44,095 nucleotides of DNA, taken from positions 1 through 44,095 of the forward strand of contig JANNTO010000066.1 of NCBI GenBank assembly GCA_031403675.1. The letters are read 5' to 3'. This document shows positions 9,424 to 38,809 of the stretch, piece by piece. The notes below the pieces were generated by a model. It worked only from the letters and a program-made list of their open reading frames with translations, was not told the DNA's origin and did no database searches. This DNA is from Gammaproteobacteria bacterium (GTDB lineage: Bacteria > Pseudomonadota > Gammaproteobacteria > Steroidobacterales > Steroidobacteraceae). Both the position numbers and the translations under genes were made by a program. Positions within the stretch are counted from its first letter, which is position 1. Each line of letters opens with the position of its first letter.

Positions 9424-10781
9424 CTTCGCCGAGAATACTCGTCGTTGACGATGAAGCCGATATTCGCCGGCTGCTCTCGGAAATCCTCGTGGAGGAGGGT
9501 TTCGAGGTGGAGATGGCAGCCGACGCCGCCGCCGCGAAGCGCGCCTGCGCGCGGCAGGAACCTGACCTCGTGCTGCTCGACATCTGGATGCCCGACATGG
9601 ATGGCATCACGCTGTTGCGCGAATGGTCCGAGAAGCATTCGTTGCGCTGCCCGGTCGTGATGCTGTCTGGTCACGGCACCGTCGAAACCGCGGTCGAGGC
9701 GACCCGGCTTGGCGCATTCGATTTCGTCGAGAAGCCTTTGTCGATTGCCAAGCTCCTGCGCACCGTCGAGCGCGCACTCGAGGCGGGGCGCAGACGCCGG
9801 CAGGCGCAGCGCACACTGATTCCGCCGCTGGTCGCGCCGGTCGGCAAGAGCCGGCTGATGCAGAAGCTGCGCGAACAGGTGCAACAAGTAGCGGGGCATG
9901 ATGCCCCCGTCCTTCTGGTCGGCGAGGCTGGCACCGGGCGCGAGGCATTTGCGCGCTATATGCACATGATGGGGCCACGTGCGACGGGCCCGTTCGTGGC
10001 AGTGACCTGTGCAAGTCTTGACGATGCAACCGCCGCTCTGAAACTGCGCGGCAGCGTCACGGAAGGCAAGGTCCAGAGCGGTTACTACGAGCAGGCTGGC
10101 GGTGGCACGCTGTTTCTGGGCGGCATCGAGGATTTGTCAGCGGCGGCGCAACGGCTGCTGCTGGCCGATCTGGAGCAGGGCGGCTGGCAGCGCGAAGGCA
10201 GTGGCGGCGAGCGTACGCCATTCAACCTGCGCATCGTCGCGGGCGCCGGACCCGGCCACGAAAACGCAGCGATTGGCCTGCGTCGCGATCTGCTCGCGCA
10301 TCTCGAAGTCATCTCGATCCGGATTCCGCCGCTGCGCGAATACACCGAAGACGTTTCCGATCTGCTACGCCACTACGTGGACCGGCTGGTGGACGAAGAG
10401 GGCATGCCGTTCCGTCGTTTCTCGGTCGCGGCGCAGAATCGCCTGCGCAACTATCCGTGGCCGGGCAATGTGCGCGAACTGCGCAACCTCGTGCAACGCC
10501 TGCTGATCATCGGCGGGCCCGAGGAGATCGGGCTCGCCGAGATCGAGCAGCAGCTGGTAACGCAACAAGCGCCGGATGAGCCACTGGTCAAGCAGGATCT
10601 GCTGGCTTTGCCGCTGCGCGAAGCGCGCGAACAGTTCGAACGCGCCTACCTGTTGCAGCAGTTGATGCTTTGCAATGGCAAGGTGGGGCTGCTCGCCAAG
10701 CGCGTCGGCATGGAACGTACCCATTTGTACCGCAAGCTGCGCTCGCTCGGCGTCGATTTCCGCCAGATCACCGAAGACTAA
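9420..10781 (+). CDS. NtrX-like response regulator (REC + degenerate sigma54-type AAA+ + Fis HTH)
   Basis: REC domain (ILVVDDE, LVLLDIWMPDMDG, KP). The central domain keeps PPLREYTEDV and WPGNVRELRN, but Walker A is GEAGTGRE, Walker B is LFLGGIEDL and there is no GAFTGA. C-terminal HTH (GLLAKRVGMERTHLYRKL). The start overlaps the kinase stop. Confidence 0.85.
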   Translation: MTSPRILVVDDEADIRRLLSEILVEEGFEVEMAADAAAAKRACARQEPDLVLLDIWMPDMDGITLLREWSEKHSLRCPVVMLSGHGTVETAVEATRLGAFDFVEKPLSIAKLLRTVERALEAGRRRRQAQRTLIPPLVAPVGKSRLMQKLREQVQQVAGHDAPVLLVGEAGTGREAFARYMHMMGPRATGPFVAVTCASLDDATAALKLRGSVTEGKVQSGYYEQAGGGTLFLGGIEDLSAAAQRLLLADLEQGGWQREGSGGERTPFNLRIVAGAGPGHENAAIGLRRDLLAHLEVISIRIPPLREYTEDVSDLLRHYVDRLVDEEGMPFRRFSVAAQNRLRNYPWPGNVRELRNLVQRLLIIGGPEEIGLAEIEQQLVTQQAPDEPLVKQDLLALPLREAREQFERAYLLQQLMLCNGKVGLLAKRVGMERTHLYRKLRSLGVDFRQITED

Positions 10782-10853
10782 AAGGGGACTGTCCCCTTTT
10801 TCCGCAGGGAAAAGGCGGACTGTCCCCTCTGCAATGGGATGCGTCCCCTTCTA
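10779..10853. repeat. Nested-palindrome intergenic element, subtype A (fills the whole ntrX-like/SPOR convergent spacer)
   Basis: TA-AAA-GGGGACTGTCCCC-TTTTTCC-gca-GGGAAAAGG-CGGACTGTCCCC ... GGGATGCGTCCCC-TTC-TA. The terminal TA dinucleotides belong to the TAA (10779-81) and TAG (10851-53, minus strand) stop codons. Confidence 0.85.
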
Positions 10854-11399
10854 GTCGACAACTTTGATGACGAGCACGTCCATTTCGGCCTCGCGCAGCC
10901 GCTCGCGCACGCGGTTGAGTTCCTTGAGGTCCGTGATTGGGCCGACGCGCACGCGGTGCCTGGTGTCGTTGTCGATAGAGACACGTTGTACCTTCGAAAC
11001 GATGCCCTGCAGCGCAAGCTGGGCCCGCACGCGGTCGGCGTCCTCGAATTTCCCGTACGAACCGACCTGTAGCACATAGGAACCTGCGCGTTCTACCGGC
11101 GCGGCCGGCGCAGTCGGCGCGTCACGCCGCACCACCGCCTCGCTCTCCGGCACGATGACCTCTGAATTTTTCAGCATGGCCGGGTAGTCGTACTCTTCCG
11201 CCGGCCCGGCGCCGGTGGGTTCGTGAATCGAAGCCGGTTGCGCATCCAGCGCCTCGCCCGCGGCTGGCGGCGTGCGGGGATCGAAGATATAGAGCGCAAG
11301 CCCGACCCCGAGGCCGGTAACCAGGCCGATGAACAGGCCGGTCCAGCCGGAGAACGGCTCGCGCCGCACCTTGCTCCGTTTGTAGTCGCGTGACACCAC
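10851..11399 (-). CDS. SPOR domain protein (septal peptidoglycan binding)
   Basis: N-terminal TM segment (GWTGLFIGLVTGLGVGLALYIF) and a C-terminal SPOR domain (YVLQVGSYGKFEDADRVRAQLALQG...HRVRVGP). The GTG start overlaps the argS TAG by 1 nt. Confidence 0.8.
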   Translation of the reverse strand: MVSRDYKRSKVRREPFSGWTGLFIGLVTGLGVGLALYIFDPRTPPAAGEALDAQPASIHEPTGAGPAEEYDYPAMLKNSEVIVPESEAVVRRDAPTAPAAPVERAGSYVLQVGSYGKFEDADRVRAQLALQGIVSKVQRVSIDNDTRHRVRVGPITDLKELNRVRERLREAEMDVLVIKVVD

Positions 11400-13165
11400 T
11401 ACATTGCCTCCGGCGCCGAAACGCCAAGCAGCCTGAGTGCATTCTGCAACACCTGCTGGGCCGAGGCGATCAGCGCGAGCCTTGCATTCCGCAGCTTCGC
11501 GTCATCGACGATGAAGGGCAGCGACGCATAGCAGGCATGAAACGAAGCCGCGAGTTCGCGCAGGTAGTGCACCACCATGTGCGGCGCCCGCAGTTCTGCC
11601 GACTGGTGCACGATCTCCGGCCAGCGCGAGATCTCGCGCATCAGCGCCAGTTCCGGTTCGCCGTCCAGCAGCGCGAGTTCGGCAAGACCGGTCGCGCGAT
11701 CGAATGGCAGGCCACGTTCGGCGGCCTGCTTCAGTACGCTTGCGATGCGCGCGTGCGCGTACTGGATGTAATACACCGGGTTGTCATTGCTGCGCGACTT
11801 CGCAAGCTCGAGGTCGAAGTCGAGGTGCTGGTCGTTCGAGCGCATCACATAGAAGAGTCGCGCTGCGTCATTGCCAACCTCGGCGCGCAGCGCCCGGAGC
11901 GTAACGAACTCGCCGGAGCGCGTGGACATCTGCACTTTCTCGCCGCCACGAAACAACGCTACGAACTGGATCAGCCGCACGTCGAGGCAGTCGCCGGGCT
12001 CGCCCATCGCGATCAGCCCGGCGCGCACCCGCGCGATGTAGCCGTGATGATCGGCGCCGAGGATCGTTACCAGCAGTTCGAAACCACGCTCGCGCTTCTC
12101 CAGGTGATAGGCGATATCGGACGCGAAGTAGGTCTTCTGCCCGTTGGCGCGCACCACGACGCGGTCCTTCTCATCGCCGAATCCGGTCGCGCGCAGCCAC
12201 AATGCGCCCGCCTGCTGGTAGACATGGTCGTGCTCGCGCAGCCGCTGGATGGCACGGGCGATCGGGCCGCCATCGGTACCGTCGCCGAGATCGCGTTCCG
12301 AGTACCAGCGGTCGAAGCGCACGCCGAAGCCATCGAGGTCAGCGCGGATGTCGGCCAGGATCTCGTTGAGTCCGGCATCGAACACGGTCTGGAAAGCAGT
12401 CGGGCCCAGCAGCTCTTTCGCGCGTGCGATCAGCGCGTCGATATAGAGATCCTTGTCGCCGCCCTCCGGTTCGTCGGGCGGCAGGCCCGCGAACACGGCG
12501 GCGCCGGAACTGCGCAGCGTGTCGCCGTGCCGGCCATGCAATGCGGCCGAAATCGGGCGGAGGTAATCACCGCGATAGGCGTTGGCCGGAAAACGGATGC
12601 TCTCACCGCAGATCTCGAGATAACGCAGCCACACGCTGGCCGCAAGAATGTCCATTTGCCGGCCTGCGTCGTTCACGTAGTACTCGCGATACACCTGCCA
12701 GCCGTCGGTCTCGAGCAGGTTCGCGACGGTCGCGCCGTAGGCCGCATGCCGGCCGTGACCGACATGCAATGGTCCGGTGGGATTGGCCGAGACGAACTCG
12801 ACGATCGCCTTACGGCCGCCACCAGCATTGCCGCGGCCATAGCTCGCGGCCGCCGAGTGTACCCGCGCGATCTCCGCCTGCCAGGCTGCCGGCGTCATGA
12901 AGAAATTGATGAACCCGGGTCCCGCGATCTCGGTTTTCACGATCAGTTCGTTCGCCGGCAGGGCCTTGATGATCGCCGTCGCGAGCGCGCGCGGATTGGT
13001 GCGCGCGGCCTTGGCGAGACGCATCGCGATGCTGCACGCAAAATCGCCGTGCGTCAGGTCGCGGCTGCGTTCGACCTCCGGTACCGGCGGCGCAACATCG
13101 CCAAGCGTCCCCGGCGGCAACGCCGCGAGCGCCTGCGTCACGAGCTTTTCGATCAGGTTCTTCAA
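11399..13165 (-). CDS. argS: Arginine--tRNA ligase
   Basis: HIGH-type motif (ANPTGPLHVGHGRH), the MSTRSG region and a DALR anticodon-binding C-terminus. Start set at TTG 13165 (MKNLIEKLVTQAL, a typical ArgS N-terminus). The longer ORF to 13246 runs into priA. Confidence 0.92.
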   Translation of the reverse strand: MKNLIEKLVTQALAALPPGTLGDVAPPVPEVERSRDLTHGDFACSIAMRLAKAARTNPRALATAIIKALPANELIVKTEIAGPGFINFFMTPAAWQAEIARVHSAAASYGRGNAGGGRKAIVEFVSANPTGPLHVGHGRHAAYGATVANLLETDGWQVYREYYVNDAGRQMDILAASVWLRYLEICGESIRFPANAYRGDYLRPISAALHGRHGDTLRSSGAAVFAGLPPDEPEGGDKDLYIDALIARAKELLGPTAFQTVFDAGLNEILADIRADLDGFGVRFDRWYSERDLGDGTDGGPIARAIQRLREHDHVYQQAGALWLRATGFGDEKDRVVVRANGQKTYFASDIAYHLEKRERGFELLVTILGADHHGYIARVRAGLIAMGEPGDCLDVRLIQFVALFRGGEKVQMSTRSGEFVTLRALRAEVGNDAARLFYVMRSNDQHLDFDLELAKSRSNDNPVYYIQYAHARIASVLKQAAERGLPFDRATGLAELALLDGEPELALMREISRWPEIVHQSAELRAPHMVVHYLRELAASFHACYASLPFIVDDAKLRNARLALIASAQQVLQNALRLLGVSAPEAM

Positions 13166-13178
13166 GTTCGCAATTCTA

Positions 13179-15365
<2,187 letters not shown>

Positions 15366-15469
15366 AACGTGTTCTTAATCAACTAGTTACGCAAATGTTC
15401 CGGGTGGCGTCAACGCCCCTCCCGCGGTCCACGTTATAGCACCGTGGCGAGGCTTCGAGTCGCACGCTG

Positions 15470-16093
15470 ATGCCGGAGGAGCCATTGATCCGATCTGCTA
15501 CGCTTTCGCTGCCCCTGTCGCTTGGCGGTGGGCGCGTCACAGCGCGGGAGACCTTGGTGGACCAGGAGCGGGCACTCGATCGATTCCTGGCCGGGATTGA
15601 GCGCAGGGCGTTGCGCATCGCGCGCATCGCGCTGCGCGATCATGCGGAGGCACAAGATGCCGTGCAGGACGCGATGATTCGCCTGGTGCGTAGTTATGGA
15701 CAGCGTCCGGAAGCAGAGTGGCGGCCACTCTTCTACCGGATCCTGCGGAACCGCATCACCGACAGCCAGCGACGGCAGAAAGTTCGTGGCGCTGTGATGG
15801 CCTGGTGGCCCGCGCGCGATGCGGACCAGACCGCGCTGGATCCGATTGAGTCGGCAGTCGATCCTGCTGGCAGCCCGGATCAGCAGCTGGAGGGCGCCGA
15901 ATTGCTCGAGCGCATCGAAACGGCGCTCGCCGGATTGAGCAGCCGCCAGCGCGAGGCTTTCCTGCTCAGGAATTTCGAAGGACTGGATGTCGCGCAGACG
16001 GCGGTGGCGATGGGTTGTTCGGAAGGCAGTGTCAAGACGCATTACTTCCGCGCGCTGCAGGCGCTGCAACAGGTATTGGGGGAACTGAAATGA
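15470..16093 (+). CDS. ECF-type RNA polymerase sigma factor
   Basis: Region 2 (DAVQDAMIRLV...FYRILRNRITD) and region 4 HTH (QREAFLLRNFEGLDVAQTAVAMGCSEGSVKTHYFRALQAL). The stop overlaps the next ATG (ATGA at 16090-93). Confidence 0.88.
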   Translation: MPEEPLIRSATLSLPLSLGGGRVTARETLVDQERALDRFLAGIERRALRIARIALRDHAEAQDAVQDAMIRLVRSYGQRPEAEWRPLFYRILRNRITDSQRRQKVRGAVMAWWPARDADQTALDPIESAVDPAGSPDQQLEGAELLERIETALAGLSSRQREAFLLRNFEGLDVAQTAVAMGCSEGSVKTHYFRALQALQQVLGELK

Positions 16094-16458: not shown

Positions 16459-16461
16459 CAG

Positions 16462-16677
16462 GTGGGTCGCAGGAGTTTCATGGCGGCCTGTCTTCTCGCC
16501 TGGCCGGCGGTGGCTGCAGATGCGCCCGTGGTGCCGCTGGACCCGGAGTTCCTGGAGTTCCTGGGAGAAATGACCGACGAAGATGCGGAATTCGTCGAAT
16601 ACATGGAATCGGGCAAGGGCGAACGCGACTTGAAGCGCGCCGAGAAAGAGGCTTCGAAGGAAGACGACGATGAATAA
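16462..16677 (+). CDS. Small secreted acidic protein (hypothetical)
   Basis: 71-aa ORF with a GTG start (ATG alternative at 16480). Short signal-like N-terminus (MAACLLAWPAVAADA), then an extremely acidic sequence. Sits 4 nt after the previous stop and overlaps the next gene by 8 nt. No family recognised. Confidence 0.45.
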   Translation: MGRRSFMAACLLAWPAVAADAPVVPLDPEFLEFLGEMTDEDAEFVEYMESGKGERDLKRAEKEASKEDDDE

Positions 16678-17191: not shown

Positions 17192-17266
17192 AGCCGCGAC
17201 ACTCGCATCCGGCCCGGCTCCGTGGGAGGATGATCCGCTGTCATCCATCCCATTCCGGGGGTCGCG

Positions 17267-17461
17267 ATGCCGAACACGAAACTGAAGCGTTCCAATGACC
17301 GGATGATCGCCGGTGTCTGCGGCGGTCTCGCCGAATGGCTCGGCTGGAAAGCCGACCGGGTCCGCGTCGCCTACGTCATCCTCTCGATCCTGAGCGTCGC
17401 GTTTCCCGGCATCATCGTTTACCTGCTGCTGTGGCTGCTGATGCCCGACGCCGACACATGA
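17267..17461 (+). CDS. PspC domain-containing membrane protein
   Basis: 64 aa with LKRSNDRMIAGVCGGLAEWLGWKADRVRVAYVILSIL plus a TM helix, the typical PspC N-terminal domain. Confidence 0.85.
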   Translation: MPNTKLKRSNDRMIAGVCGGLAEWLGWKADRVRVAYVILSILSVAFPGIIVYLLLWLLMPDADT

Positions 17462-17497
17462 AGGGGACTGTCCCCTTTTAGGGGACTGTCCCCTCTT
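17461..17497. repeat. Nested-palindrome element, subtype A (two tandem GGGGACTGTCCCC cores)
   Basis: AAGGGGACTGTCCCCTTTTA-GGGGACTGTCCCCTCTT. It begins on the last base of the PspC-domain gene's TGA stop and ends 6 nt (the second core 10 nt) before the next gene's ATG (17504). Confidence 0.8.
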
Positions 17498-17503
17498 CAC
17501 ACC

Positions 17504-18367: not shown

Positions 18368-18483
18368 ACTCGTTCGATTCGCGCGCGCCGTTGGCGCGCC
18401 GGGCTGGCTCGCGCGCTCAGAAGAACGGACATTCGCTTGCTCGCCCGCCGGGCCGTTGCGGGCGGCGGCGTGTGACTGGCGCG

Positions 18484-22087: not shown

Positions 22088-22986
22088 AGCGCGCACCAAG
22101 CGAGCCCGTCCACCTGATCGACGCGAGCTTCTTCGTGTTCCGTGCCTACTACTCGGTGGGCCTCGAGATGACCGACGTCGATGACCAGCCGGTCAACGCG
22201 CTGTACGGCTTCGGGCGCTTTCTCGGCGATCTGCTCGAGGAGGCGAAACCGGCGCACATCGCGGTGGCATTCGACGAAAGCCTGTCGAGCTCGTTCCGGA
22301 ACGAGATCTTTCCAGCCTACAAGGCGAATCGCGAACCCGCGCCGCCGGAACTGAAACGCCAGTTCGCACTGTGCCGGCAGCTCTGCCGCCTGCTCGGCAT
22401 CGCCGAGTTCAGCAGCCCCACACACGAGGCCGACGACATCATCGGCACCCTCGCGACGCGGTTTCGCGAACGCGGGCACAACTCAGTGCTGGTCACGCGC
22501 GACAAGGACCTTGCGCAACTGATCCGCGACGGCGACGCGTACTGGGATTACGCGGGCGAGCGCCGTTACGGCTATGCCGACATCGAAGGGCAATTCGGCG
22601 TGCGCCCGGAGCGCATGGCGGATTTCCTGGCGCTGACCGGCGACACGGTGGACAACATCCCGGGCATCCCGGGTGTCGGGCCGAAGACTGCGGCCGTGCT
22701 GTTACGCGAATTCGCCTCGTTGGAAGAAATCTACGCGGGCCTCGAAAAAGTGCCTGGACTGCCGATCCGTGGCGCCGGCAAGTTGCCAGCGCGTCTGCGC
22801 GAACATCGCGATGCCGCCTTCTTCGCGCGCCGGCTGACCACGATCGCCTGTGACATGCCGATCGACGCGACGGCCGAGAGCCTGACGCGCCGCGCACCCG
22901 ATCTTGAGGCACTCGGGATATTCTACGATCAGGCCCGCTTTGGCCAGGCGCTGCGCCGGCAGGCGGAGCGCCTCGCCAGGGTGTAA
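22084..22986 (+). CDS. 5'-3' exonuclease / flap endonuclease (Xni/ExoIX-like, PIN-like + H3TH)
   Basis: GTG 22084 ([23 protein letters not shown]). Motifs [31 protein letters not shown] and H3[22 protein letters not shown]. The longer ORF from 21778 overlaps the HNH gene. Confidence 0.88.
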
Positions 22987-23054
22987 AAGGGGACGTTACC
23001 CTTTTCCTCTTGTCCTTCGGGAAAAGGGTAGGAAAAGGGTAACGTCCCCTTTTA
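22984..23054. repeat. Nested-palindrome element, subtype B
   Basis: TA-AAAGGGGACGTTACCCTTTTCC-(loop with an extra GGAAAAGGGTA)-GGAAAAGGGTAACGTCCCCTTT-TA. The arms pair perfectly over about 22 nt. The left TA is part of the exonuclease TAA stop. Confidence 0.9.
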
Positions 23055-23065
23055 CGACTGGTGCT

Positions 23066-23737
23066 GTGTTGGAACGCAGACTGATTCCGTTGCCTGGCTA
23101 CGTGGAATATCCACCGGACGAAATGCTCGCCCGTGCGCGTGGCTTTGCCGACGAAGTGCAGCGCCGCAGAACGGTGCGCGATTTCTCCGATCGGCCGGTG
23201 CCGCGGGCGCTGATCGAGCAATGTCTGCGCAGCGCCGGGTCCGCACCGTCGGGCGCCAATCAGCAGCCCTGGCATTTCGTCGCGGTTTCTGATCCGCTCA
23301 CCAAGCACCGGATCCGAACCGCGGCCGAAGCCGAAGAGCGCGAGTTTTACCAACACCGCGCGCCGCCCGAATGGCTGGAGGTCCTGCAGCCGCTCGGCAC
23401 CGATGCGAGCAAACCATTTCTGGAGATCGCGCCCTGGCTGATCGCGGTCTTCATCCGCCGCTTTGAGCGGCTGCCGGACGGCAGCAAGCGCAAGCACTAC
23501 TACACCGACGAATCGGTCGGACTCGCAACCGGGCTGCTGCTCGCGGCCATTCACCACGCGGGCCTCGTGTCGCTGACCCACACGCCAAGCCCGATGAAGT
23601 TCCTGAATAAAATCCTCGACCGCCCGAAGGACATCGAACGGCCGTTCCTGCTGTTGGTCGTCGGCTATCCGGCGGCGCGCGCGATGGTTCCCGACATCGG
23701 GCGCAAACCGCTCACGGAAATCGCGACGTTCAAATAA
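23066..23737 (+). CDS. Nitroreductase family protein
   Basis: [13 protein letters not shown]...[14 protein letters not shown] plus a C-terminal LLVVGYP. Start GTG 23066 or TTG 23069. The upstream part of ORF 22904..23737 merely translates the repeat. Confidence 0.85.
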
Positions 23738-23795
23738 AAGGGGACGTTACCCCTTTTCCTTCGATCCTTCGGGAAAAGGGTAACGTCCCCTTTTA
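23735..23795. repeat. Nested-palindrome element, subtype B (between convergent genes)
   Basis: TA-AAAGGGGACGTTACCCCTTTTCC-ttcgatccttcg-GGAAAAGGGTAACGTCCCCTTT-TA. Both terminal TAs are inside the TAA stop codons of the flanking genes (23735-37 plus strand, 23793-95 minus strand). Confidence 0.9.
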
Positions 23796-31880: not shown

Positions 31881-32863
31881 CGCGTATTCGCCGTCGCGGC
31901 GCGGCCGGCGACGAGCCGCGCCAGGCCATCGGCATATGCGGCGCTGTCATTGAGCGCGGGGACGTAATCGAAACGCTCACCGCCGGCGGCGAGGAAAGTG
32001 TCGCGGCCGCGCATCGCGATCTCTTCCAGCGTTTCGAGGCAATCTACGGCAAAGCCCGGGCAGGCGACGACCAGGTGGCGCACGCCCTGTGCGGCCAGTT
32101 CAGAGAGCCGCTCCTCGGTGTAAGGCCTGAGCCAGCGCTCGCCTCCGACCCGCGACTGGAAGGAAAGCGACCAATCCTGCGCCCGCAATCCGAGCCGCTC
32201 CACGACGCGGCCCGCGGTGGTCCGGCACTGCGACTCATAGGGATCGCCCGCATCGACGTAGCGCTGCGGCAGGCCGTGGAACGAGAACAGCAGGTGTGCG
32301 CCGGTCCCGCCGAGATGCGGGGCGATGGAATCGGCCACGGTGGCGATGTGGTTGGCGTCGTCGTGGTAGTTGTCGATGCGGAGTTGTTCCGGCTTCCAGT
32401 CCAGGGCCTTGAGCGCCGCCTCGACGCGGTCGAATACCGATGCGGTTGTAGTCGCCGAATATTGCGGATAAAGCGGCAGCACGATCACGCGTTGCACGCC
32501 CGCGGAACGGAGTTGCTGCAACGCCGTAGCGATGGAGGGCTTTCCGTAGGTCATCCCGATGGCGACCGCAGCAGGATCCGGAAGCAGTTCGCCGAGCCGG
32601 CGTTCGAGCGCGGCGGCGAGCGAGCGCGTGTTGACCAGGAGCGGCGAGCCCGCGGCAGTCCAGATCTCGCGATAGGCGCGTGCGCTCCGCCTGGGGCGGA
32701 TCTGCAGGATCACGCCGTAAAGGATCGGCAGCCACAACAGGCGCGGCAGGTCCACCACGCGCGGATCCGACAGGAACTCAGCCAGGAAACGCCGCACGGC
32801 CGCGGGTGTCGCGGCATCCGGCGTGCCGAGATTGGCGACCAGGACACCTGTTGTTACGGCCAT
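31877..32863 (-). CDS. hemH: Ferrochelatase
   Basis: ATG 32863 (MAVTTGVLVANLGTPDAATPAAVRRFLAEFLSDPRVV). Motifs PLYPQYS, LLFSFHGLP and CLETLEEI. Confidence 0.93.
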   Translation of the reverse strand: MAVTTGVLVANLGTPDAATPAAVRRFLAEFLSDPRVVDLPRLLWLPILYGVILQIRPRRSARAYREIWTAAGSPLLVNTRSLAAALERRLGELLPDPAAVAIGMTYGKPSIATALQQLRSAGVQRVIVLPLYPQYSATTTASVFDRVEAALKALDWKPEQLRIDNYHDDANHIATVADSIAPHLGGTGAHLLFSFHGLPQRYVDAGDPYESQCRTTAGRVVERLGLRAQDWSLSFQSRVGGERWLRPYTEERLSELAAQGVRHLVVACPGFAVDCLETLEEIAMRGRDTFLAAGGERFDYVPALNDSAAYADGLARLVAGRAATANTR

Positions 32864-32888
32864 GCCGCGACGATACCCGACGTCCCAC

Positions 32889-32944
32889 AAAAAGGGGACG
32901 TTACCCTTTTCTCATACAGGAAAAGGGTAACGTCCCCATTAAAA
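32889..32944. repeat. Nested-palindrome element, subtype B
   Basis: AAAAAGGGGACGTTACCCTTTTC-tcatacag-GAAAAGGGTAACGTCCCCATTAAAAG. Lies between the hemH start (25 nt away) and the OMP gene stop (about 58 nt away). Confidence 0.88.
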
Positions 32945-33001
32945 GAAACGGCGGCCGGAGGATGGACCACCGGCCGCCGAATCACGCATCGATCGTCAGA
33001 A

Positions 33002-33565
33002 TCAGAACGCGAAACGCACGCCCGCCAGGATGGTGTTGGCGTCGTCGGCCATCTCGTACTCGGCTCCCACGGCGAAGTTCTCCGTGAAGAAGTAACGACC
33101 ACCAACCGCGACCGAGGTGTCGTCGGATCCGCCGCCGAAATCGCGGTGAATCACGTGGCCTTCGAGTTCGAAGCCATCGGCCACGCGGCCACGGATGCCC
33201 GCGGACACGAGATAGCCGTCGTCGTCGATGGAAAACCCGCCGGATGAAGCATCGGCCTGGATGTAGCCGGCACGGCCGACCAGATCGACGTTCTCGGAAA
33301 TGCCGAAACGTCCACCGAGGCCGACCGCGTACTGATCGACGTCGACGCCAGAGACCTGCTGATTCGAGTATTCGGCGAATGCAAAGAAGTTCTCAGCAAA
33401 GCCGATCGAGCCGCGCAGGCCGAAACCGTCGGCGGTTGGGCCGTTGTCGATGTCGGTGCTGAGCCAGCCGAGGTCGACATACGAATAGCTCATGTCCTCG
33501 GCCTGGGCCGCGAGCGGAGCTGCCGCCAGCAGCAGGGTGCCAACCATGGCATTCACGATCTTCAT
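33002..33565 (-). CDS. Small outer-membrane beta-barrel protein
   Basis: ATG 33565 preceded by AAGGAAA. Signal peptide (MKIVNAMVGTLLLAAAPLAAQA), alternating beta-strand pattern and terminal aromatic (GVRFAF). Confidence 0.8.
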   Translation of the reverse strand: MKIVNAMVGTLLLAAAPLAAQAEDMSYSYVDLGWLSTDIDNGPTADGFGLRGSIGFAENFFAFAEYSNQQVSGVDVDQYAVGLGGRFGISENVDLVGRAGYIQADASSGGFSIDDDGYLVSAGIRGRVADGFELEGHVIHRDFGGGSDDTSVAVGGRYFFTENFAVGAEYEMADDANTILAGVRFAF

Positions 33566-33699
33566 GATCTGATTTCCTTTGTAAGTGAGGGATCCTGATG
33601 CACGCACGGCTGCCTCTGGGGGAGGTTGCCGCTGACGTGTAGAGAGGGGTCCACAAGCCATGCGTGCAGTTGTCAGACCGCGCCATTGTGGACGAGTTC

Positions 33700-33830
33700 C
33701 GGCCAGATTAGAAGCGCTATCAGGTCACAGAAAAGCAATATAAAACAAATACTTAATAGATATTGCAATCACAAAAAATTTGTGGTTTTTTTGCACTGCA
33801 CTTTTTGTTGTTGGATAACACTGGTCGGGC
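33700..33830 (-). promoter_or_regulatory. AT-rich island upstream of the OMP gene; candidate sigma70 promoter
   Basis: Locally very low GC within high-GC DNA. On the minus strand, TTGCAA (33763-68), a 17-nt spacer, then TTTTAT (33740-45). Also a CACAAAAAATTTGTG palindrome followed by a T-run (33770-33791). Confidence 0.3.
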
Positions 33831-33859
33831 AGCGGAGCAATCGACGGCCGCGAATGGCG

Positions 33860-35317
33860 CTATGAAACTCCGCCGACGCAGACGTACTTGATCTCGGTGT
33901 AGTCGAGCAGCCCGTACTTCGAGCCTTCGCGGCCAGTGCCCGATTCCTTGACGCCGCCGAACGGCGCGACTTCGGTCGAGATGATCCCGGTATTGAGCCC
34001 GACGATGCCGCACTCGAGCGCCTCCGACACGCGCCAGGAGCGCGCGAGGTCGCGTGTGTAGACATAGGCTGCCAGCCCATACTCCGTGTCATTCGCCATA
34101 GCGATGGCTTCTGGCTCCGAATTGAAACGGAAACAAGCCGCGACCGGCCCAAAGGTTTCCTCACGCGCGACCATCATGGCGGTCGTGACGCCGGTCAGCA
34201 CGGTCGGCTCGAAGAACGTGCCGCCGAGCGCGTGACGATGGCCGCCGGTCACGACCACAGCACCTTTCGAGGTCGCATCGGCGACATGTTCTTCGACCTT
34301 TTTCAGTGCGGCTGCATCGATCAGCGGTCCCAGATCGGTCGCACCGGCGAGACCGTCGCCAACGCGAAGCTTCGAAACGGCGGCCACCAGCTTCTGCGTG
34401 AAGGCTTCGTAGACACTCTCCTGCACCAGCAGCCGGTTCGCGCAGACGCAGGTCTGGCCGGTATTGCGGTACTTGGAGGCGATCGCGCCCGCAACCGCGG
34501 CATCGAGATCGGCGTCCTCGAACACGATGAACGGCGCGTTGCCACCAAGTTCGAGCGACACCTTCTTCATCGTTTTCGCGCACTGTGCCATCAACAGTTT
34601 GCCGATCTCGGTCGAGCCGGTGAACGAGAGCTTGCGCACGCGCGCATCGCCGGTCAGCACGCCGCCAATCTCGCGCGCGGGACCGGTGATCACGTTCAGC
34701 ACGCCCGGTGGGATGCCGGCACGATGTGCGAGTTCGGCGAGCGCGAGCGCGGAGTAGGGCGTCTGTGTCGCCGGCTTGCAGATCACGGTACAGCCGGCGG
34801 CGATGGCCGGCGCTACCTTGCGTGTGATCATCGCCGCGGGGAAATTCCACGGCGTGATCGCGGCGACCACACCGACCGGCTGGCGCAGCACCAGGATGCG
34901 CTTGTCGGCCTGGTGGCCTGGAATGATGTCGCCATAGACACGCTTAGCTTCCTCGCCAAACCATTCGACGAAGGACGCGGCATAGGCTATCTCGCTGCGC
35001 GATTCCGCGAGCGGCTTGCCTTGCTCGGCGGTCATCAACACGGCGAGGTCATCCTGGTTTGCCATGATGAGTTCAAACCAGCGGCGCAGGATGGCGCTGC
35101 GTTCCTTCGCGGTCTTCGCGGCCCAGGCCGGAAATGCCTGGTATGCGGCGGCGACAGCGGCCCCGGCGCCCGCCGCATTGATCGCGGGGATCGTGCCGAG
35201 TTGCTGGCCCGTTGCAGGATTGGTCACGGGAAGCTTCGCGCTGCCCGCGGCATCCACCCACGCGCCATTGACGTAGCACTGCTGGCGGAAGAGCGAAGGA
35301 TCCTTGAGTTTCATCAT
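33860..35317 (-). CDS. gabD: NAD(P)-dependent succinate-semialdehyde dehydrogenase
   Basis: 485-aa ALDH (ITPWNFP, LELGGNAP, catalytic QTCVCANR, EETFGP). The N-terminus (FRQQCYVNGAWVDA) is typical of GabD. Confidence 0.85.
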   Translation of the reverse strand: MMKLKDPSLFRQQCYVNGAWVDAAGSAKLPVTNPATGQQLGTIPAINAAGAGAAVAAAYQAFPAWAAKTAKERSAILRRWFELIMANQDDLAVLMTAEQGKPLAESRSEIAYAASFVEWFGEEAKRVYGDIIPGHQADKRILVLRQPVGVVAAITPWNFPAAMITRKVAPAIAAGCTVICKPATQTPYSALALAELAHRAGIPPGVLNVITGPAREIGGVLTGDARVRKLSFTGSTEIGKLLMAQCAKTMKKVSLELGGNAPFIVFEDADLDAAVAGAIASKYRNTGQTCVCANRLLVQESVYEAFTQKLVAAVSKLRVGDGLAGATDLGPLIDAAALKKVEEHVADATSKGAVVVTGGHRHALGGTFFEPTVLTGVTTAMMVAREETFGPVAACFRFNSEPEAIAMANDTEYGLAAYVYTRDLARSWRVSEALECGIVGLNTGIISTEVAPFGGVKESGTGREGSKYGLLDYTEIKYVCVGGVS

Positions 35318-36294
35318 GTCGCCTTCACGACGCGCTGATCGATTGCGCCGAAGATGGAAGCGCCGCCGGCATCGAACATCTCGATGCGCACGCGATCGCC
35401 GAACGAAAGAAAGGGTGTCACCGGCCGGCCCTGGTCGAGTGTTTCCAGCATGCGCCGCTCCGCGAGGCAGGTCGAGCCTTGCGCGCGGTCGCGATTCGAG
35501 ACCGTGCCCGAGCCGACGATCGCACCGGCGCGGAGGCGGCGGGTCTTCGCCGCGTGTGCAATCAGTTGCCCGAAATCGAAGGTCATGTCGACACCGGCGT
35601 TCGGTCGGCCAAAGAGTTCGTCATTCAAGTGCACTGTGAGCGGCAGGTGAACTTTGGCATCGTGCCACGCACCGCCCAGTTCATCGGGCGTCACGGCGAC
35701 TGGCGAAAACGCGGTCGCTGGCTTCGACTGATAGAAACCGAAACCCTTGGCGAGCTCGTTCGGGATCAGGTTCCTGAGCGACCAGTCGTTCACCAGCATC
35801 ACCAGCACAATGTGGCGACGCGCCGCGGCTGCATCCGCTCCCATCGGTACGTCGTCGGTAACGACTGCGACCTCGCCCTCAAGGTCGATGCCCCAGTCTT
35901 CGCTGCCGAACGGCACATCGGCAGTTGGCGGCAGCAGGTCGTCGGAGCCGCCCTGGTAGACCAACGGATCGGTCCAGAAGGATTCGGGCAGCGTCGCGCC
36001 GCGCGCCTTGCGCACCAGTTCGACGTGATTGACATAGGCGCTGCCGTCCACCCAATGAAAACTCCGTGGTAGCGGCGCAAGAACCGCCGCAGGATCGAAC
36101 GCGAAATCCTGCGCGCGCCCGGCCTCGAGCTCACGCGCAAGTGCCGCAAGCGCAGGCGCGACCCGGGCCCAGTCGTCGAGTGCCGCCTGCAGTGTCGGCG
36201 CGACCGCCGCTGCCAAGGCGGCCCGGTGCAGATCGCGGCTGACGACTACCAACCGCCCGTCGCGGCTGCCGTCGGCCTGCGTCGCAAGTTTCAT
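35314..36294 (-). CDS. Fumarylacetoacetate hydrolase (FAH) family protein
   Basis: ATG 36294 (MKLATQADGSRDGRLVVVSRDL) and a C-terminal FAH fold (DLEGEVAVV, VMLVNDWSLR, GSGTVSN). 4-nt overlaps with both neighbours. Confidence 0.8.
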   Translation of the reverse strand: MKLATQADGSRDGRLVVVSRDLHRAALAAAVAPTLQAALDDWARVAPALAALARELEAGRAQDFAFDPAAVLAPLPRSFHWVDGSAYVNHVELVRKARGATLPESFWTDPLVYQGGSDDLLPPTADVPFGSEDWGIDLEGEVAVVTDDVPMGADAAAARRHIVLVMLVNDWSLRNLIPNELAKGFGFYQSKPATAFSPVAVTPDELGGAWHDAKVHLPLTVHLNDELFGRPNAGVDMTFDFGQLIAHAAKTRRLRAGAIVGSGTVSNRDRAQGSTCLAERRMLETLDQGRPVTPFLSFGDRVRIEMFDAGGASIFGAIDQRVVKAT

Positions 36295-37421
36295 TTTGCG
36301 GCGCCTTTCCAGCTGTCCACGTAGCCCGCCCATTCCACCTGCGCGGCGGCGGGATCAATCTCGAGGGCGTCGCGCGTATCCACCATCACCGCGTACTCAT
36401 CGGTCGCGGGTTTGGACTGCACCAGCATGCGCGCCAACGCCTTCGGATGCGGGCCGTGCGTGAAACCGGCGGGATGCAGCGTCACCATGCCCGGATGGAT
36501 ACTGTCGCGGCTGAAGAAATCGCCCGCGTGGTAGAAGATGGCTTCGTCGTAGTCGTCGTTGTTGTGGAAGAACGGGATCTTGATCGCGCCCGAATCGGTC
36601 TCGAACGGCCGCGGCACAAAGGTGCAGACTACAAAGCGGTTGCCGACGAAAGTCGTGTGCGCCGACGGCGGCAGGTGATAGCGATGGCTCATCAGCGGGC
36701 GGATGTCACGCACATTGATGCGGCATACCGACAGCTCGCCGTGCCAGCCGATCGCATCGAGCGGGTTGTACGGAAACGTGACGGTTGAAACGGCATTGCG
36801 GCGCTTGATCGCGACTCGCCAGGCCTTCTCATCCTGCTGTGCCAGGAAAGCCTCGTCCACGCGCGGCGCGTCCAGCATCGCCGGATCAAAGATCGCCTGC
36901 CCGCCGAGCAGGCCCTTGTCCGGCAGCAGGTAGGAGGCGTTGGTCGCCTCGACCATCAGGATTGCCGTGGGCTCCGCGCATTCCAGCCGCCACATCGTGC
37001 CGCGCGGCAGCACGATGTAATCGCCCGCCTCGAATGCCAGGTGTCCGAAATCGCAGAACAGCTCGCCATGCCCCTGGTGCACGAACAAGAGCTCGTCGCC
37101 GTCGGCATTGCGAGCGAGGGCATCCATCTTTCCTGCGACGCGCCAGAAGCGGATCCGGCAATGCGCGTTGTGCATGACCGCGGCGGCAGACCACGGGTGC
37201 GCCGTGACCGCATCGAGTCTGGTCAGGTCGAAGGCATGGGGTGAGAGCGGTCCTTCAAAGGACGACCAACCGGTCGGCGGGTGGCGGTGGTGAAAGAACG
37301 CCGCCGGGCCGAAGAATCCTTCCTTGCTCATTTCGCGCTCAAAGGTGCCGGGCGGCAGGTCGCAGTGCGCCTGACGGGACGCGGTACCCTCAATGCGGGA
37401 GTGGCCTATATAGCGTTTCAT
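36291..37421 (-). CDS. Homogentisate 1,2-dioxygenase family (cupin) protein, short form
   Basis: 376 aa, with FVHQGHGELFCDFG..GDYIVLPRGTMWR and FFHNNDDYDEAIFYHAGDFFSR...HPAGFTHGPHP. Family-level call only. Substrate unknown. Confidence 0.6.
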   Translation of the reverse strand: MKRYIGHSRIEGTASRQAHCDLPPGTFEREMSKEGFFGPAAFFHHRHPPTGWSSFEGPLSPHAFDLTRLDAVTAHPWSAAAVMHNAHCRIRFWRVAGKMDALARNADGDELLFVHQGHGELFCDFGHLAFEAGDYIVLPRGTMWRLECAEPTAILMVEATNASYLLPDKGLLGGQAIFDPAMLDAPRVDEAFLAQQDEKAWRVAIKRRNAVSTVTFPYNPLDAIGWHGELSVCRINVRDIRPLMSHRYHLPPSAHTTFVGNRFVVCTFVPRPFETDSGAIKIPFFHNNDDYDEAIFYHAGDFFSRDSIHPGMVTLHPAGFTHGPHPKALARMLVQSKPATDEYAVMVDTRDALEIDPAAAQVEWAGYVDSWKGAAK

Positions 37422-38809
37422 CTGCTCAATTTAGTTTCATCTGCAACTAATAGCAAGTTGGGAGCAAGTTGGGGACTGTCCCCATTTCCGCGCAGCGAAA
37501 AAGGGGACAGGCCCCACTTAGCCAGCCACGATGATCGTTCCATGATGGCCGTCACGCCCATGCCGCCCGCGGTGCACACCGAGATCAGGCCGCGGCCCGA
37601 GCCACGTTCCGCCAGCAGCTTGGCGAGCGTCGCGACGATGCGTGCGCCAGTCGCCGCGAATGGGTGACCGACTGCGACCGAACCGCCCTTGACGTTGAGC
37701 TTGGCACGTTCGATCGAGCCGAGTGGCGCGGAAAGTCCGAGCCGCTCGCGGCAGAACTGCGGCGATTCCCAGGCTTTGAGCGTGCACAGCACCTGCGCCG
37801 CAAAGGCCTCGTGGATCTCGTAGAAATCGAAGTCCTGCAGGCGCAGCCCGGCATCGGCCAGCATCCGTGGCACGGCGTAGGCGGGCGCCATCAGCAGGCC
37901 CTCGCCGCCGACGAAATCGACTGCCGCCGCTTTGCCATAGGTCATATACGCCTGAATCGGCAGTCCACGCGAATTCGCCCAGTCCTCGCTCGCGAGCAGC
38001 ACGCTCGCGGAGCCGTCGGTCATCGGCGTGCTGTTGCCGGCGGTCAGCGTCCCATCCGCGGCAAACGAGGGCTTGAGTTTCGCGAGCTTCTCGAGGCTGG
38101 TGTCGGCGCGGACATTGTTATCGGCCGCAACACCGAGATACGGCACGACCAGATCCGACATGAATCCTTCGGCCCAGGCGCGGGCCGCGCGCTGGTGGCT
38201 CTGGAAGGCCAGTTCATCCTGTTCGGCACGCGTGATTTTCCAGGTGCGTGCCATCTGTTCGGCGTGCTGGCCCATCGACAGCCCGGTGCGTGGCTCGCCG
38301 GTGCCCGGATACGAGGGCTTGAAATGGCGCGGCCGCAGGCCGAGAAAGGGCTTGATGCGCTCGCCGAAACTGCGTGCGCGGAACACCCGCAGCATCAGTT
38401 GCTGATACTCGCGCCCGAACACGATCGGTGGGTCGCTGACCGTGTCCACGCCGCCGGCGATGCCGGCGTCAATCTGGCCGAGCGCGATCTTGTTGGCGAT
38501 TGCGATCGCGGCCTCGATGCTGGTGCCGCACGCGCGTTGCACGTCGAGTCCCGGCGTCTCGGGCGACAGGCCGGAATCAAGTAGCGCTTCGCGCGCGAGA
38601 TTCCACTGGCTCGAATGCTTCATCACCGCGCCGGCGATGACATCGCCGAGCCGCACGCCCTTGAGCGAAAACCGGTCCACCACGGCCTTGAGCGAGGTCG
38701 TGAGCATCTGCTGGTTACCGACGCTCGCATAGGCGCCGTGGGCGCGCGCGAACGGAATGCGTGCGCCGCCGATGACAGCGACACGACGGGGTACTGATCC
38801 GACCAGCAT
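37418..38809 (-). CDS. Acetyl-CoA C-acyltransferase (thiolase) with a repeat-encoded C-terminal extension
   Basis: ATG 38809 preceded by GGAGAA. Active-site regions (VQRACGTSIEA, NVKGGSVAVGHPFAATG, SVCTAGGMGVTAIMER). About 38 residues follow the usual ..IMER end and translate the repeat. The stop overlaps the next ATG. Confidence 0.85.
   Translation of the reverse strand: MLVGSVPRRVAVIGGARIPFARAHGAYASVGNQQMLTTSLKAVVDRFSLKGVRLGDVIAGAVMKHSSQWNLAREALLDSGLSPETPGLDVQRACGTSIEAAIAIANKIALGQIDAGIAGGVDTVSDPPIVFGREYQQLMLRVFRARSFGERIKPFLGLRPRHFKPSYPGTGEPRTGLSMGQHAEQMARTWKITRAEQDELAFQSHQRAARAWAEGFMSDLVVPYLGVAADNNVRADTSLEKLAKLKPSFAADGTLTAGNSTPMTDGSASVLLASEDWANSRGLPIQAYMTYGKAAAVDFVGGEGLLMAPAYAVPRMLADAGLRLQDFDFYEIHEAFAAQVLCTLKAWESPQFCRERLGLSAPLGSIERAKLNVKGGSVAVGHPFAATGARIVATLAKLLAERGSGRGLISVCTAGGMGVTAIMERSSWLAKWGLSPFSLRGNGDSPQLAPNLLLVADETKLSR
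37471..37520. repeat. Nested-palindrome element, subtype A (degenerate right arm), lying inside the 3' tail of the thiolase ORF
   Basis: GGGGACTGTCCCCATTTCC-gcgcagc-GAAAAAGGGGACAGGCCCC-ac-TTA. On the minus strand it is preceded by TAA-GT, the same offset as at other gene ends but out of frame. Confidence 0.8.

Follow-up and report, generated by a model that had tools for sequence, protein, structure and literature searches.

The closest described counterparts of the elements considered here are the repeats associated with TIRYT transposases, viz. the TIRtrons and the families of TIR repeats (Di Nocera et al., 2013, BMC Genomics 14:522). The repeats that flank TIRYT genes share the motif GGGGWSAS and form dispersed families, some of which are self-complementary and which often occur as dimers (PMC3733652; PMC6006769). 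TIRYT transposases are equivalent to subclass 2.1 of TnpA_Y1 (Quentin et al., 2018) and to Group 1 of the RAYTs (Bertels et al., 2017); REP-like sequences were not found near subclass 2.1 genes (Quentin et al., 2018; PMC6006769) and Bertels et al. (2017) obtained only low 16-mer counts for Group 1. The class is known but poorly studied, and it is present in many bacterial phyla. Sequence-conserved terminator hairpins, in which a recognisable repeat lies downstream of many genes, include the paired DUS of Neisseria and USS of Haemophilus, and the mycobacterial TRIT motif (Gardner et al., 2011) is reportedly another such hairpin; to our knowledge, none of these is associated with a neighbouring transposase gene. 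The elements described below resemble them in that a repeated sequence forms a terminator-like hairpin downstream of many genes, whereas DUS, USS, and TRIT are tied to DNA uptake or lineage-restricted, and their sequences are unrelated.

The window analysed in the present work, a 44-kb stretch of DNA (44,095 nt) from a Steroidobacteraceae-like gammaproteobacterium, holds six loci at the coordinates that a first-pass annotation had given them. These loci contain 13 repeat units, all of which are intergenic and adjoin stop codons, and we consider it likely that they are REP/REPIN-type non-autonomous palindromic repeats of the family that flanks TIRYT genes. The six loci are:

Locus 1, 10779..10853, no strand assigned: between convergent genes for a sigma-54 response regulator (+) and a SPOR-domain protein (-); unit A1 AAAAGGGGACTGTCCCCTTTTT at 10780-10801, a loop, and unit A2 GGGAAAAGGCGGACTGTCCCCTCT at 10807-10830, with an orphan B-type arm GGGATGCGTCCCC at 10836-10848
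Locus 2, 17461..17497, + strand: tandem subtype A units at 17463-17475 and 17481-17493
Locus 3, 22983..23055, no strand assigned: subtype B inverted doublet with CCTTCGGG within its spacer
Locus 4, 23735..23795, no strand assigned: subtype B inverted doublet with arms 23735-23759 and 23771-23795
Locus 5, 32891..32940, - strand: subtype B inverted doublet with arms 32891-32911 and 32920-32940
Locus 6, 37470..37516, - strand: degenerate subtype A doublet of GGGGACTGTCCCC (37471-83) and GGGGACAGGCCCC (37503-15)

The repeat unit appears to be a hairpin with GGGGAC...GTCCCC ends that is set within an A-run and a T-run, and at most loci two units or arms would jointly form a longer hairpin. Subtype A (GGGGACTGTCCCC) is found at 10784-10796, 17463-17475, 17481-17493, and 37471-37483, with the degenerate partner forms GGCGGACTGTCCCC at 10814-27 and, at locus 6, GGGGACAGGCCCC. 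Subtype B is the pair GGGGACGTTACCC / GGGTAACGTCCCC, which forms the inverted arms of loci 3, 4, and 5; these arms are complementary over 26 nt at locus 3 (22983-23008 and 23030-23055, 100%), 25 nt at locus 4 (92%), and 21 nt at locus 5 (95%), and the subtype A doublet of locus 6 (37470-91 and 37495-516) reaches 86% over 22 nt. The first-pass annotation attributed one shared architecture to all six loci; inverted units are paired across a short spacer at loci 1, 3, 4, 5, and 6, but locus 2 consists of two tandem units, and locus 1 carries the orphan arm in addition. The outer A-run and T-run flanks that it described are clean at loci 1, 3, and 4, partial at locus 5 (right flank CCCCATTAAAAG), and missing from the outer edges of locus 6.

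Locus 1 takes up the entire gap from the stop codon at 10779-81 to that at 10851-53(-), and locus 4 is the exact gap between the convergent stop codons of a nitroreductase gene (+) and an acetyl-CoA hydrolase/transferase gene (-). The spacer that holds locus 2 measures 42 nt, from a PspC-domain gene (stop TGA 17459-61) to a dienelactone hydrolase gene (ATG 17504), and locus 3 lies between the co-directional genes for a 5'-3' exonuclease (stop TAA 22984-86) and the nitroreductase. The neighbours of locus 5 are genes for an OMP beta-barrel protein and a ferrochelatase, both on the - strand; locus 5 lies directly downstream of an ordinary GC hairpin with a T-rich tail (32949-32972), and on the - strand TTTTTG comes after its own hairpin. 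Locus 6 is neighboured by a thiolase gene and an HgmA-like dioxygenase gene, both also on the - strand. The thiolase reading frame continues through locus 6.

The claim that the elements are a dispersed, REP/BIME-like family of nested palindromes, intergenic only, and far more frequent than chance would allow is upheld by these data. The pattern GGGGACNNNCCC has 9 matches in the window against 0.42 expected, and a search with relaxed 18-20-mers returned copies at the six known loci only, compared with about 0.2 in shuffles; this search of the window yielded no further copies and none within core coding sequence.

Canonical REP, BIME, and REPIN elements and their RAYT (TnpA_REP) transposases, as found in E. 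coli and Pseudomonas, share several of these features, viz. short extragenic palindromes whose inverted doublets form a long hairpin, several subtypes per genome, placement in convergent and co-directional gene spacers, ends that touch or supply stop codons, and suggested functions in termination and mRNA stabilisation. The canonical RAYT gene is moreover a Y1 transposase gene, present in single copy, with its own repeats on both sides, and such bracketing is seen for the present repeats in other genomes. However, the present repeats differ in being without the unpaired 5' GT[AG]G tetranucleotide (TnpA_REP subclasses 2.2, 2.4, 2.5, 2.7, and 2.8), neither GTAG nor GTGG occurring at either foot of the 13 units checked; their conserved ends are the paired hexamers GGGGAC/GTCCCC, which are located within the stem, the repeat includes the A and T runs, and the enzyme clade linked to them is a different one.

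Predicted RNA folds of the hairpins have energies of -27.7 to -52.2 kcal/mol (z -4.6 to -11), with the paired loci between -39 and -52 kcal/mol. The individual values are -40.9 kcal/mol on one strand and -40.7 kcal/mol on the other for locus 1 (z -5.4 and -4.8), -27.7 kcal/mol for locus 2 (z -4.6), -52.2 and -51.0 kcal/mol for locus 3 (z -8.5 and -11.0), -40.8 and -39.9 kcal/mol for locus 4, and -39.6 kcal/mol for locus 6; locus 5 folded together with the neighbouring GC hairpin gives -64.5 kcal/mol. All six loci combine a GC-rich hairpin with a position downstream of a gene. The T runs are mostly of 4-5 and are in part paired with the A run, and a strict scan for a hairpin followed by 5 T was passed only by locus 5(-), the sole locus to pass it fully, and by part of locus 4(-). 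The strong hairpins, their A/T-run borders, and their start 0-3 nt past stop codons suggest that the repeats probably double as transcription terminators, often in both directions, and/or as stabilisers of mRNA 3' ends, and the bidirectional terminator-like design proposed in the first-pass annotation agrees with these predictions.

The loci might be no different from ordinary intrinsic, partly bidirectional terminators that are inherited vertically and owe their similarity to selection for an A-run, a GC hairpin, and a T-run, with no mobility and no transposase. We consider this explanation unlikely, although it accommodates the location of all window copies at gene 3' ends in contact with stop codons, the strong hairpins, which have T runs of 4-5 on one or both strands, the usual occupancy of orthologous spacers in relatives, and the gene-end bias across phyla. 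The same spacers in 8 syntenic relatives carry hairpins with constant GGGGAC/GTCCCC ends and a subtype-specific interior that is mirrored in both arms: as inverted repeats the arms are identical at 14-18 of 18 nt, and it is positions 7-11 that vary between subtypes. The window and the 8 syntenic Steroidobacteraceae loci together hold 30 clusters in 204 kb, which are distributed over convergent (11), co-directional (15), and divergent (4) spacers, with 0 within core coding sequence. The same subtype recurs at unrelated spacers of one genome (GTTACCC three times in the window, GCATCCC twice in L121, and GTTCACC three times in L131), whereas at orthologous spacers the subtype differs between genomes. 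This combination is unexpected under independent vertical evolution; also against ordinary terminators are the four related copies that sit in a divergent promoter spacer, where a terminator is unneeded, and the composite GG(C/T)GGACTGTCCCCTC, which recurs across non-homologous loci.

Contrary to the occupancy pattern that the first-pass annotation had named as refuting a dispersed or mobile family, orthologous sites in the relatives are not all occupied, and empty sites exist alongside remnants. The nitroreductase and AcCoA-hydrolase genes overlap without an element in L126, the PspC and DLH genes share an ATGA overlap in L128, a 15-nt spacer in L131 contains no hairpin, and remnants of 12-20 nt are kept in L127 and L128; in the PspC spacer, orthologous to that of locus 2, the number of units in relatives is 0, 2, 3, or 4. 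Because of the subtype pattern, the empty and remnant sites, and the four copies in a divergent promoter spacer, comparison of these sequences indicates a turning-over dispersed family and not only inherited terminators. The uniformity within genomes could stem from gene conversion instead of transposition, and the signs of turnover at orthologous sites fit both processes alike.

The core AAAGGGGACTGTCCCCTTT is carried by 86 assemblies spanning about 12 phyla, and most of its occurrences lie at the 3' ends of genes; across phyla, an ORF of 100 aa or more ends within 60 nt of 75 of 97 sites, compared with 120 of 550 random positions. Among metagenome matches to the hairpin pattern AAAGGGG-N2-T-N2-CCCCTTT, which has 256 possible cores, two cores take 54%, and the ACTGT core makes up 1 of 129 in viral contigs. 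Stability alone does not explain this skew, a further point against ordinary terminators.

The search for a RAYT, to which the first-pass annotation had pointed, proved key: the same repeat cores bracket genes for RAYT-like (TIRYT) Y1 HUH tyrosine transposases as inverted copies at 9 loci in other genomes, a linkage that also speaks against ordinary terminators. Six of the nine (L088, L004, L009, L108, L291, and L287) came from searching for the motif itself and are a biased sample, the only unbiased ones being the three homologues fetched by protein alone, all of which are bracketed (L374, L375, and L376). B-type repeats bracket the TIRYT genes of L088 and L376, those of L088 (GGGGACGGTACCC / GGGTACCGTCCCC) being one base off subtype B of the window, and the GGGGACAGGCCCC variant of locus 6 also flanks the TIRYT gene of L291. 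The transposases match Pfam PF01797 (E = 5e-15) and NCBIfam REP_Tyr_transpos (E = 1e-17 to 1e-25), carry NH[VIFY]H, Y[IVM]E.NP, and a C-terminal tail ending in GRP(R/K)K, and are 37-57% identical over their full length to published TIRYTs, whereas their identity to canonical RAYTs is 24-33% over part of the length.

The repeats likewise agree with published TIR families, some of which are self-complementary, arranged as dimers or clusters, and dispersed in the genome. Subtype A, read on one strand as GGGGACAG, and the related metagenome core GGGGTCAG both fit the flanking motif GGGGWSAS exactly, whereas subtype B (GGGGACGT) matches it at 7 of 8 positions and deviates at position 7. The present repeats differ from the published ones, which were described as "moderately abundant" in a few species and whose subclass 2.1 genes were reported without REP-like neighbours, in forming a 13-nt near-perfect palindrome within A/T runs, in their frequency of about one per 7 kb in Steroidobacteraceae, and in their presence in about 12 phyla.

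As the first-pass annotation had noted for the window, no Y1 transposase was found in the 44 kb nor in the 8 syntenic loci, and the presence in this genome of a cognate TIRYT is for that reason an assumption. Such an enzyme, encoded elsewhere in the genome by a single-copy gene, would recognise the hairpins on single-stranded DNA and would cut and rejoin them, and would thereby spread or replace copies in trans, leaving no target-site duplication. Copies would persist only where they are harmless, i.e., in the few bases between genes, and their effect on the host would probably be intrinsic, often two-way, termination and/or stabilisation of mRNA 3' ends.

It is quite improbable that the repeats are instead sites bound or recognised by a host factor with no part in transposition, such as a nucleoid protein, an RNA-binding protein, or a signal for uptake or recombination, and are kept uniform by co-evolution with it. 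The conservation of the GGGGAC/GTCCCC half-sites across subtypes and phyla and the uniformity of subtypes within a genome would suit such a factor, but 2 or 3 subtypes coexist in one genome, no candidate factor is known, the orientation of the centre base is unlinked to gene strand (43 vs 55) or GC skew (91 vs 83), and the direct linkage to TIRYT genes provides a simpler explanation.

The loci are best read as REP/REPIN-type repeats, probably terminators too, in preference to TA-duplicating MITEs. Mobilisation by an IS630/Tc1-mariner transposase, which the first-pass annotation had proposed from symmetric TA flanks at three copies, would suit the inverted-repeat architecture and the TA at either end of loci 1, 3, and 4, but it is scarcely credible and was rejected because these TAs belong to TAA/TAG stop codons of neighbouring genes (10779-81, 10851-53(-), 22984-86, 23735-37, and 23793-95(-)); loci 2, 5, and 6 have no TA flanks, the element in relatives directly abuts TAG, TGA, or TAA (gagTAG or cacctGA followed at once by GGGGAC) with no conserved TA pair, no DDE transposase was seen in the window, and the only transposase physically linked to the repeats is a Y1 HUH enzyme, a type that leaves no target-site duplication.

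Our analyses indicate that the six repeat loci in the window are best explained, on the sequence comparisons reported here, as non-autonomous repeats of REP/REPIN type that belong to the TIRYT (GGGGWSAS) kind, a TIRYT being a RAYT-like Y1 HUH tyrosine transposase of TnpA_Y1 subclass 2.1 (RAYT Group 1). Direct reading of each locus bore out the sequences and coordinates assigned to the family in the first-pass annotation. Two unit types with GGGGAC..GTCCCC ends are distinguished by their hairpin interior, viz. subtype A, with the core GGGGACTGTCCCC, and subtype B, in which GGGGACGTTACCC is paired with GGGTAACGTCCCC.

Repeat loci of the window, with their units and gene context.
10779-10853, locus 1, between convergent genes: subtype A core at 10784-96, degenerate partner GGCGGACTGTCCCC at 10814-27, orphan B-type arm at 10836-48
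17461-17497, locus 2, between co-directional genes: subtype A core at 17463-75 and 17481-93
22983-23055, locus 3, between co-directional genes: subtype B, inverted arms 22983-23008 and 23030-23055 (26 nt, 100% complementarity)
23735-23795, locus 4, between convergent genes: subtype B, inverted arms 23735-59 and 23771-95 (25 nt, 92% complementarity)
32891-32940, locus 5, between co-directional genes: subtype B, inverted arms 32891-911 and 32920-40 (21 nt, 95% complementarity)
37470-37516, locus 6, between co-directional genes: subtype A core at 37471-83, degenerate partner GGGGACAGGCCCC at 37503-15, inverted arms 37470-91 and 37495-516 (22 nt, 86% complementarity)

The frequency of the family is above chance, as had been claimed, with 9 matches to GGGGACNNNCCC in the window (G+C 62-70%) against 0.42 expected. 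Relaxed 18-20-mers (up to 4-5 mismatches) match at the six loci only (shuffles, about 0.2), and the window family is therefore complete at 13 units, counting the orphan arm. The intergenic placement also held at 6/6 loci, where the flanking genes were named by Pfam and the distance from stop codon to element start is 0-3 nt. At Rfam gathering thresholds there was no match anywhere in the window, and a literature search with the repeat sequence itself recovered unrelated eukaryotic primers only. For the response regulator encoded in the window, no database record with an identical protein was found.

The predicted RNA folds agree with the strong hairpins initially described: the transcribed strand or strands of each locus fold at -27.7 to -52.2 kcal/mol (z -4.6 to -11), and 0/200 shuffled controls fold as well as the real loci. 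In these predictions the stems are lengthened by pairing of the A-run with the T-run, and the T runs of the window loci, mostly 4-5 long, are taken up by the stem. A strict scan for a hairpin followed by five T residues passes the minus strand of locus 5 and part of locus 4 and no others; a simple terminator scanner under-calls these elements, since their T run is base-paired to the A run. The hairpin core looks like a ready-made bidirectional terminator, and on the modelled folds the hairpin and A/T runs would probably make the copies terminators and/or 3'-end stabilisers. In subtype B the spacer contains CCTTCGG(G), with a UUCG-type tip, which is kept in relatives, and since CCTTCGG is kept across genomes and subtypes this spacer belongs to the repeat rather than being free sequence. 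The motif is doubled (UUCG-type loop, plus strand) at 23008-23030 and 23760-23770 of the window, and likewise in the syntenic contigs L121 (9950-9965), L122 (9965-9980) and L127 (12737-12750). Genes elsewhere in the window end in unrelated GC hairpins (e.g. 32949-72 and around 2540-70), and the repeat family is thus one among several 3'-end hairpin types here. The former (32949-32972, minus strand) is a GC-rich hairpin of the ordinary kind, CGGTGGTCC..CCGGCCGCCG with TTTCTTTT after it, and lies immediately before locus 5 in the direction of transcription, so that the end of the OMP gene has two strong hairpins in tandem.

Plain terminators are a minor rival for the origin of the loci, though not for their effect, and the pattern in related genomes stands against them. 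The nitroreductase gene at 23063-23737 has hundreds of orthologues (80-96% identity), several of them labelled Steroidobacteraceae, and eight contigs syntenic with the window (L121-L133) were used as the comparison set. Nearly all of the orthologous spacers in these eight contigs hold hairpins with 5' GGGGAC and 3' GTCCCC that abut stop codons.

Hairpin interiors in the window and in syntenic contigs.
Window: GTTACCC / GGGTAAC
L121: GCATCCC / GGGATGC
L122: GCACCC / GGGTGC
L122, L127 and L129: GCACACC / GGTGTGC
L126 and L129: GGGACAGACAC / GTGTCTGTCCC

In the window and its eight relatives there are 30 clusters in 204 kb (about 1 per 7 kb), which by gene calls are co-directional in 15 cases, convergent in 11 and divergent in 4, with 0 within core coding sequence. 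The arms of one element, as inverted repeats, are identical at 14-18 of 18 nt, and arm positions 7-11 differ among subtypes but are mirrored every time. One subtype is repeated at unrelated spacers of one genome (GTTACCC at loci 3, 4 and 5 of the window; GCATCCC at both spacers flanking the nitroreductase in L121; GTTCACC three times in L131), while the orthologous spacer of another genome holds another subtype. Empty and remnant sites, as anticipated for a dispersed family, are present in the related genomes: the nitroreductase / AcCoA-hydrolase junction of L126 is a gene overlap, the PspC / DLH junction of L128 is an ATGA overlap, the spacer in L131 is 15 nt long and lacks a hairpin, and L127 and L128 keep remnants of 12-20 nt. 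The number of units in the PspC / DLH spacer is 0, 2, 3 or 4. The divergent AcCoA-hydrolase / SSF spacer, in which a terminator is unneeded, is empty in the window and occupied in L122, L126, L127 and L129, each time with a different subtype. Judged from these alignments, the subtype pattern, the empty and remnant sites and the occupied divergent spacer are the signature of a population of repeats turning over by transposition or conversion, and not of independently inherited terminators.

A candidate enzyme for such turnover is provided by transposase genes that are bracketed by similar repeats. In L088, a contig of Candidatus Thioglobus, a 223-aa ORF is preceded, 28 nt upstream, by a B-like arm AAAAGGGGACGGTACCCTTTT, and the inverted arm GGGTACCGTCCCC overlaps its stop codon; by its Pfam match (PF01797, E = 5e-15) the product is a Y1 HUH transposase. 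The right repeat arm of L088 encodes the last TIRYT residues (..PKKGTVPS), and a 109-bp tandem duplication (20-128 vs 129-237) covers the left repeat arm and the first 19 TIRYT codons. Homologues of this protein were found by tblastn among the loci gathered here in L004 (Planctomycetota), L009 (Nitrospira), L108 (Gammaproteobacteria), L287 and L291. Because these loci had been obtained via the motif, three more homologues (L374, L375 and L376) were picked by protein alone, and 3/3 are bracketed by GGGGAC-type inverted repeats.

Repeats flanking the transposase genes.
L004, L009 and L108: GGGGAC(T/A)GTCCCC
L291: GGGGACAGGCCCC / GGGGCCTGTCCCC, the same variant as in window locus 6
L287: GGGGTCAGACCCC, upstream only, with no matching arm downstream of the gene
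L374 and L375: GGGGACAGACCACGGTTT, close to the L126/L129 subtype
L376: AAAGGGGACGCGCCCCTTT / AAAAGGGCGCGTCCCCTTT, B-type

L108 also has GGGGACGCATCCCC, the L121 subtype. Since B-type arms bracket transposase genes, the subtype B element of the window appears as the left end of the gene cassette, a short spacer and the right end, and its relationship to the cassette is, as far as can be read from the arms, that of a REPIN or MITE. A protein-first scan of viral contigs identified an alphaproteobacterial-type TIRYT (ORF 1501-2178) in prophage-like IMG/VR contigs (L383-L392), with the repeats AATTACGGTGACAGTGCAC / GTGCACTGTCACCGTAATT, sometimes doubled, about 40-70 nt on each side of the ORF; these represent a GGTGACAG variant of the GGGGWSAS theme. 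No TIRYT labelled Steroidobacteraceae is present among the best 120 homologues.

RAYT-like genes with terminal inverted repeats in place of GTAG REPs have been described as "TIRtrons" encoding "TIRYTs"; their repeats have GGGGWSAS in common, some of them are self-complementary and make up dispersed families of moderate abundance, frequently in dimeric form (Di Nocera et al. 2013, PMC3733652). Of 26 TIRYTs, 20 fall in TnpA_Y1 subclass 2.1 (Bertels' RAYT Group 1), which has a median of 238 aa, the HuH motif NHVH or NH[YF]H, the Y motif YIELNP or Y[IV]HLNP, and the widest taxonomic spread; no REP-like sequences adjoining its genes were found (Quentin et al. 2018, PMC6006769), and counts of flanking 16-mers in Group 1 were only low (Bertels et al. 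2017). Within the literature searched, the term TIRYT is used only by Di Nocera et al. 2013 and Quentin et al. 2018. The enzymes identified here have the subclass 2.1 motifs (NCBIfam REP_Tyr_transpos, E = 1e-17 to 1e-25) and are 37-57% identical over their full length to the published TIRYTs psu2716, dau2153, gbm2474, pca3049, gsu2396 and sml1152, against only 24-33%, over part of the length, to canonical RAYTs. GGGGWSAS is fitted by GGGGACAG and GGGGTCAG. On the best-supported reading the copies would be spread or replaced in trans by a Y1 HUH transposase whose gene lies elsewhere in the genome and which, as with TnpA_REP of E. coli and IS608, would recognise the hairpins on single-stranded DNA with no target duplication, and copies would be kept only in tiny intergenic spaces. 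The original proposal of a MITE with TA target-site duplication (IS630/Tc1-mariner) is rejected, the TA flanks being stop codons of the neighbouring genes (TAA 10779-81, CTA 10851-53, TAA 22984-86, TAA 23735-37 and TTA 23793-95), and a concrete, testable assignment to TIRYT-kind REP/REPINs takes the place of that speculative account. The CGTC-tagged REP super-family of Di Nocera, a candidate since subtype B contains ACGTCCCC, is ruled out because it differs in having an unpaired CGTC tag, stems of 8-9 bp starting with A-T pairs and no linked transposase.

The core extends well beyond this lineage. A scan with AAGGGGACKKTMCCCTTT over one-genome-per-species contigs (at least 120 rows) found it, among the matches listed, in at least 86 assemblies (counted by accession prefix) from about 12 phylum-level groups, viz. 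Actinomycetota including Coriobacteriia, Pseudomonadota, Myxococcota, Planctomycetota, Acidobacteriota including Aminicenantes, Nitrospirota, Bacteroidota, Bacillota, Omnitrophota, Bdellovibrionota, SAR324 and Binatia. Among these same matches local G+C ranges from 27% to 74%, the exact palindrome variant with the 5-nt interior ACTGT accounts for 124/141, and the core always lies either at the tip or at the base of a longer palindrome that is specific to its lineage. At 75/97 of the listed sites an ORF of 100 aa or more ends within 60 nt on at least one side, compared with 120/550 random positions, and most distances from ORF end to core are 0-12 nt.

A general preference for strong small hairpins fails to explain this core. 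With the pattern AAAGGGG-NN-T-NN-CCCCTTT, for which 1 in 256 is expected per core, ACTGT makes up 1/129 matches in viral contigs, which use many other loops, whereas a metagenome sample concentrates on ACTGT (44/142; 33/120 contigs) and TCTGA (32/142; 28/120 contigs), jointly 54% of pattern matches. No special triloop stability bonus is known for CUG. The central base of ACTGT, in composites and on either side of TIRYT genes, is mostly T on the same strand (loci 1 and 2, the PspC spacers of L121-L133, and the L004 and L009 TIRYT flanks), and the units are therefore direct, not inverted, as to this base. This would fit strand-specific hairpin recognition, yet the central T has no polarity relative to the upstream gene strand among the matches listed (43 vs 55) or to GC skew as a lagging-strand-template proxy (91 vs 83), the latter being weak evidence because the 8-kb skew measure is noisy.

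TIRYTs are the most widespread RAYT-like clade and have so far been thought to lack REP-like partners or to have sparse ones only; TIRYT-kind repeats are known but poorly studied, and the DNA partners of these enzymes are barely described. Our results suggest that the partner is a hairpin core, very short and easy to search for, that is common at gene ends across many phyla; more widely, the long-missing pan-bacterial partner of this commonest clade may be GGGG-W-CWG-W-CCCC hairpins. It is quite possible, if a little short of probable, that these hairpins in their A/T runs constitute one pan-bacterial REP-like superfamily, serviced by TIRYTs, from which many phyla would draw a large share of their minimal two-way terminator hairpins at gene ends. 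If this is confirmed, a simple marker would be at hand with which to annotate such repeats in metagenome-assembled genomes, TIRYT biochemistry would gain a model substrate, and there would be an example of selfish repeats providing 3'-end signals across bacteria.

Some other features of the window were observed. At 37418-37530 (minus strand) the frame of the FadA2/FadI-like thiolase gene has no stop at the canonical C-terminus (..TAIME) and continues for another 39 codons through locus 6 (..WGLSPFSLRGNGDSPQ..) to a TGA overlapping the ATG of the next gene (ATGA); either the REP encodes a C-terminal extension or the assembly contains a frameshift. The intergenic stretch 33662-33859, which precedes the OMP beta-barrel gene and follows the next minus-strand gene, is unusually A+T-rich and has A/T palindromes (ATCACAAAAAATTTGTGGTTTTTTTGCAC). 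Another dispersed repeat, about 55 nt long and unrelated to the first (GGCGGGG..CCCTCGCTCG.GCCGCCGGAACTTACGCGCTCGCTCGGGACCCCGCC), often in inverted pairs, is present at about 2375-2445 and probably at 18368-18483, and in the Steroidobacteraceae relatives mostly in the convergent DLH / PNTB spacer (L121 5350; L122 5285/5369; L126 5250/5399; L127 5425; L129 5236/5386/19238; L133 4388/4576).
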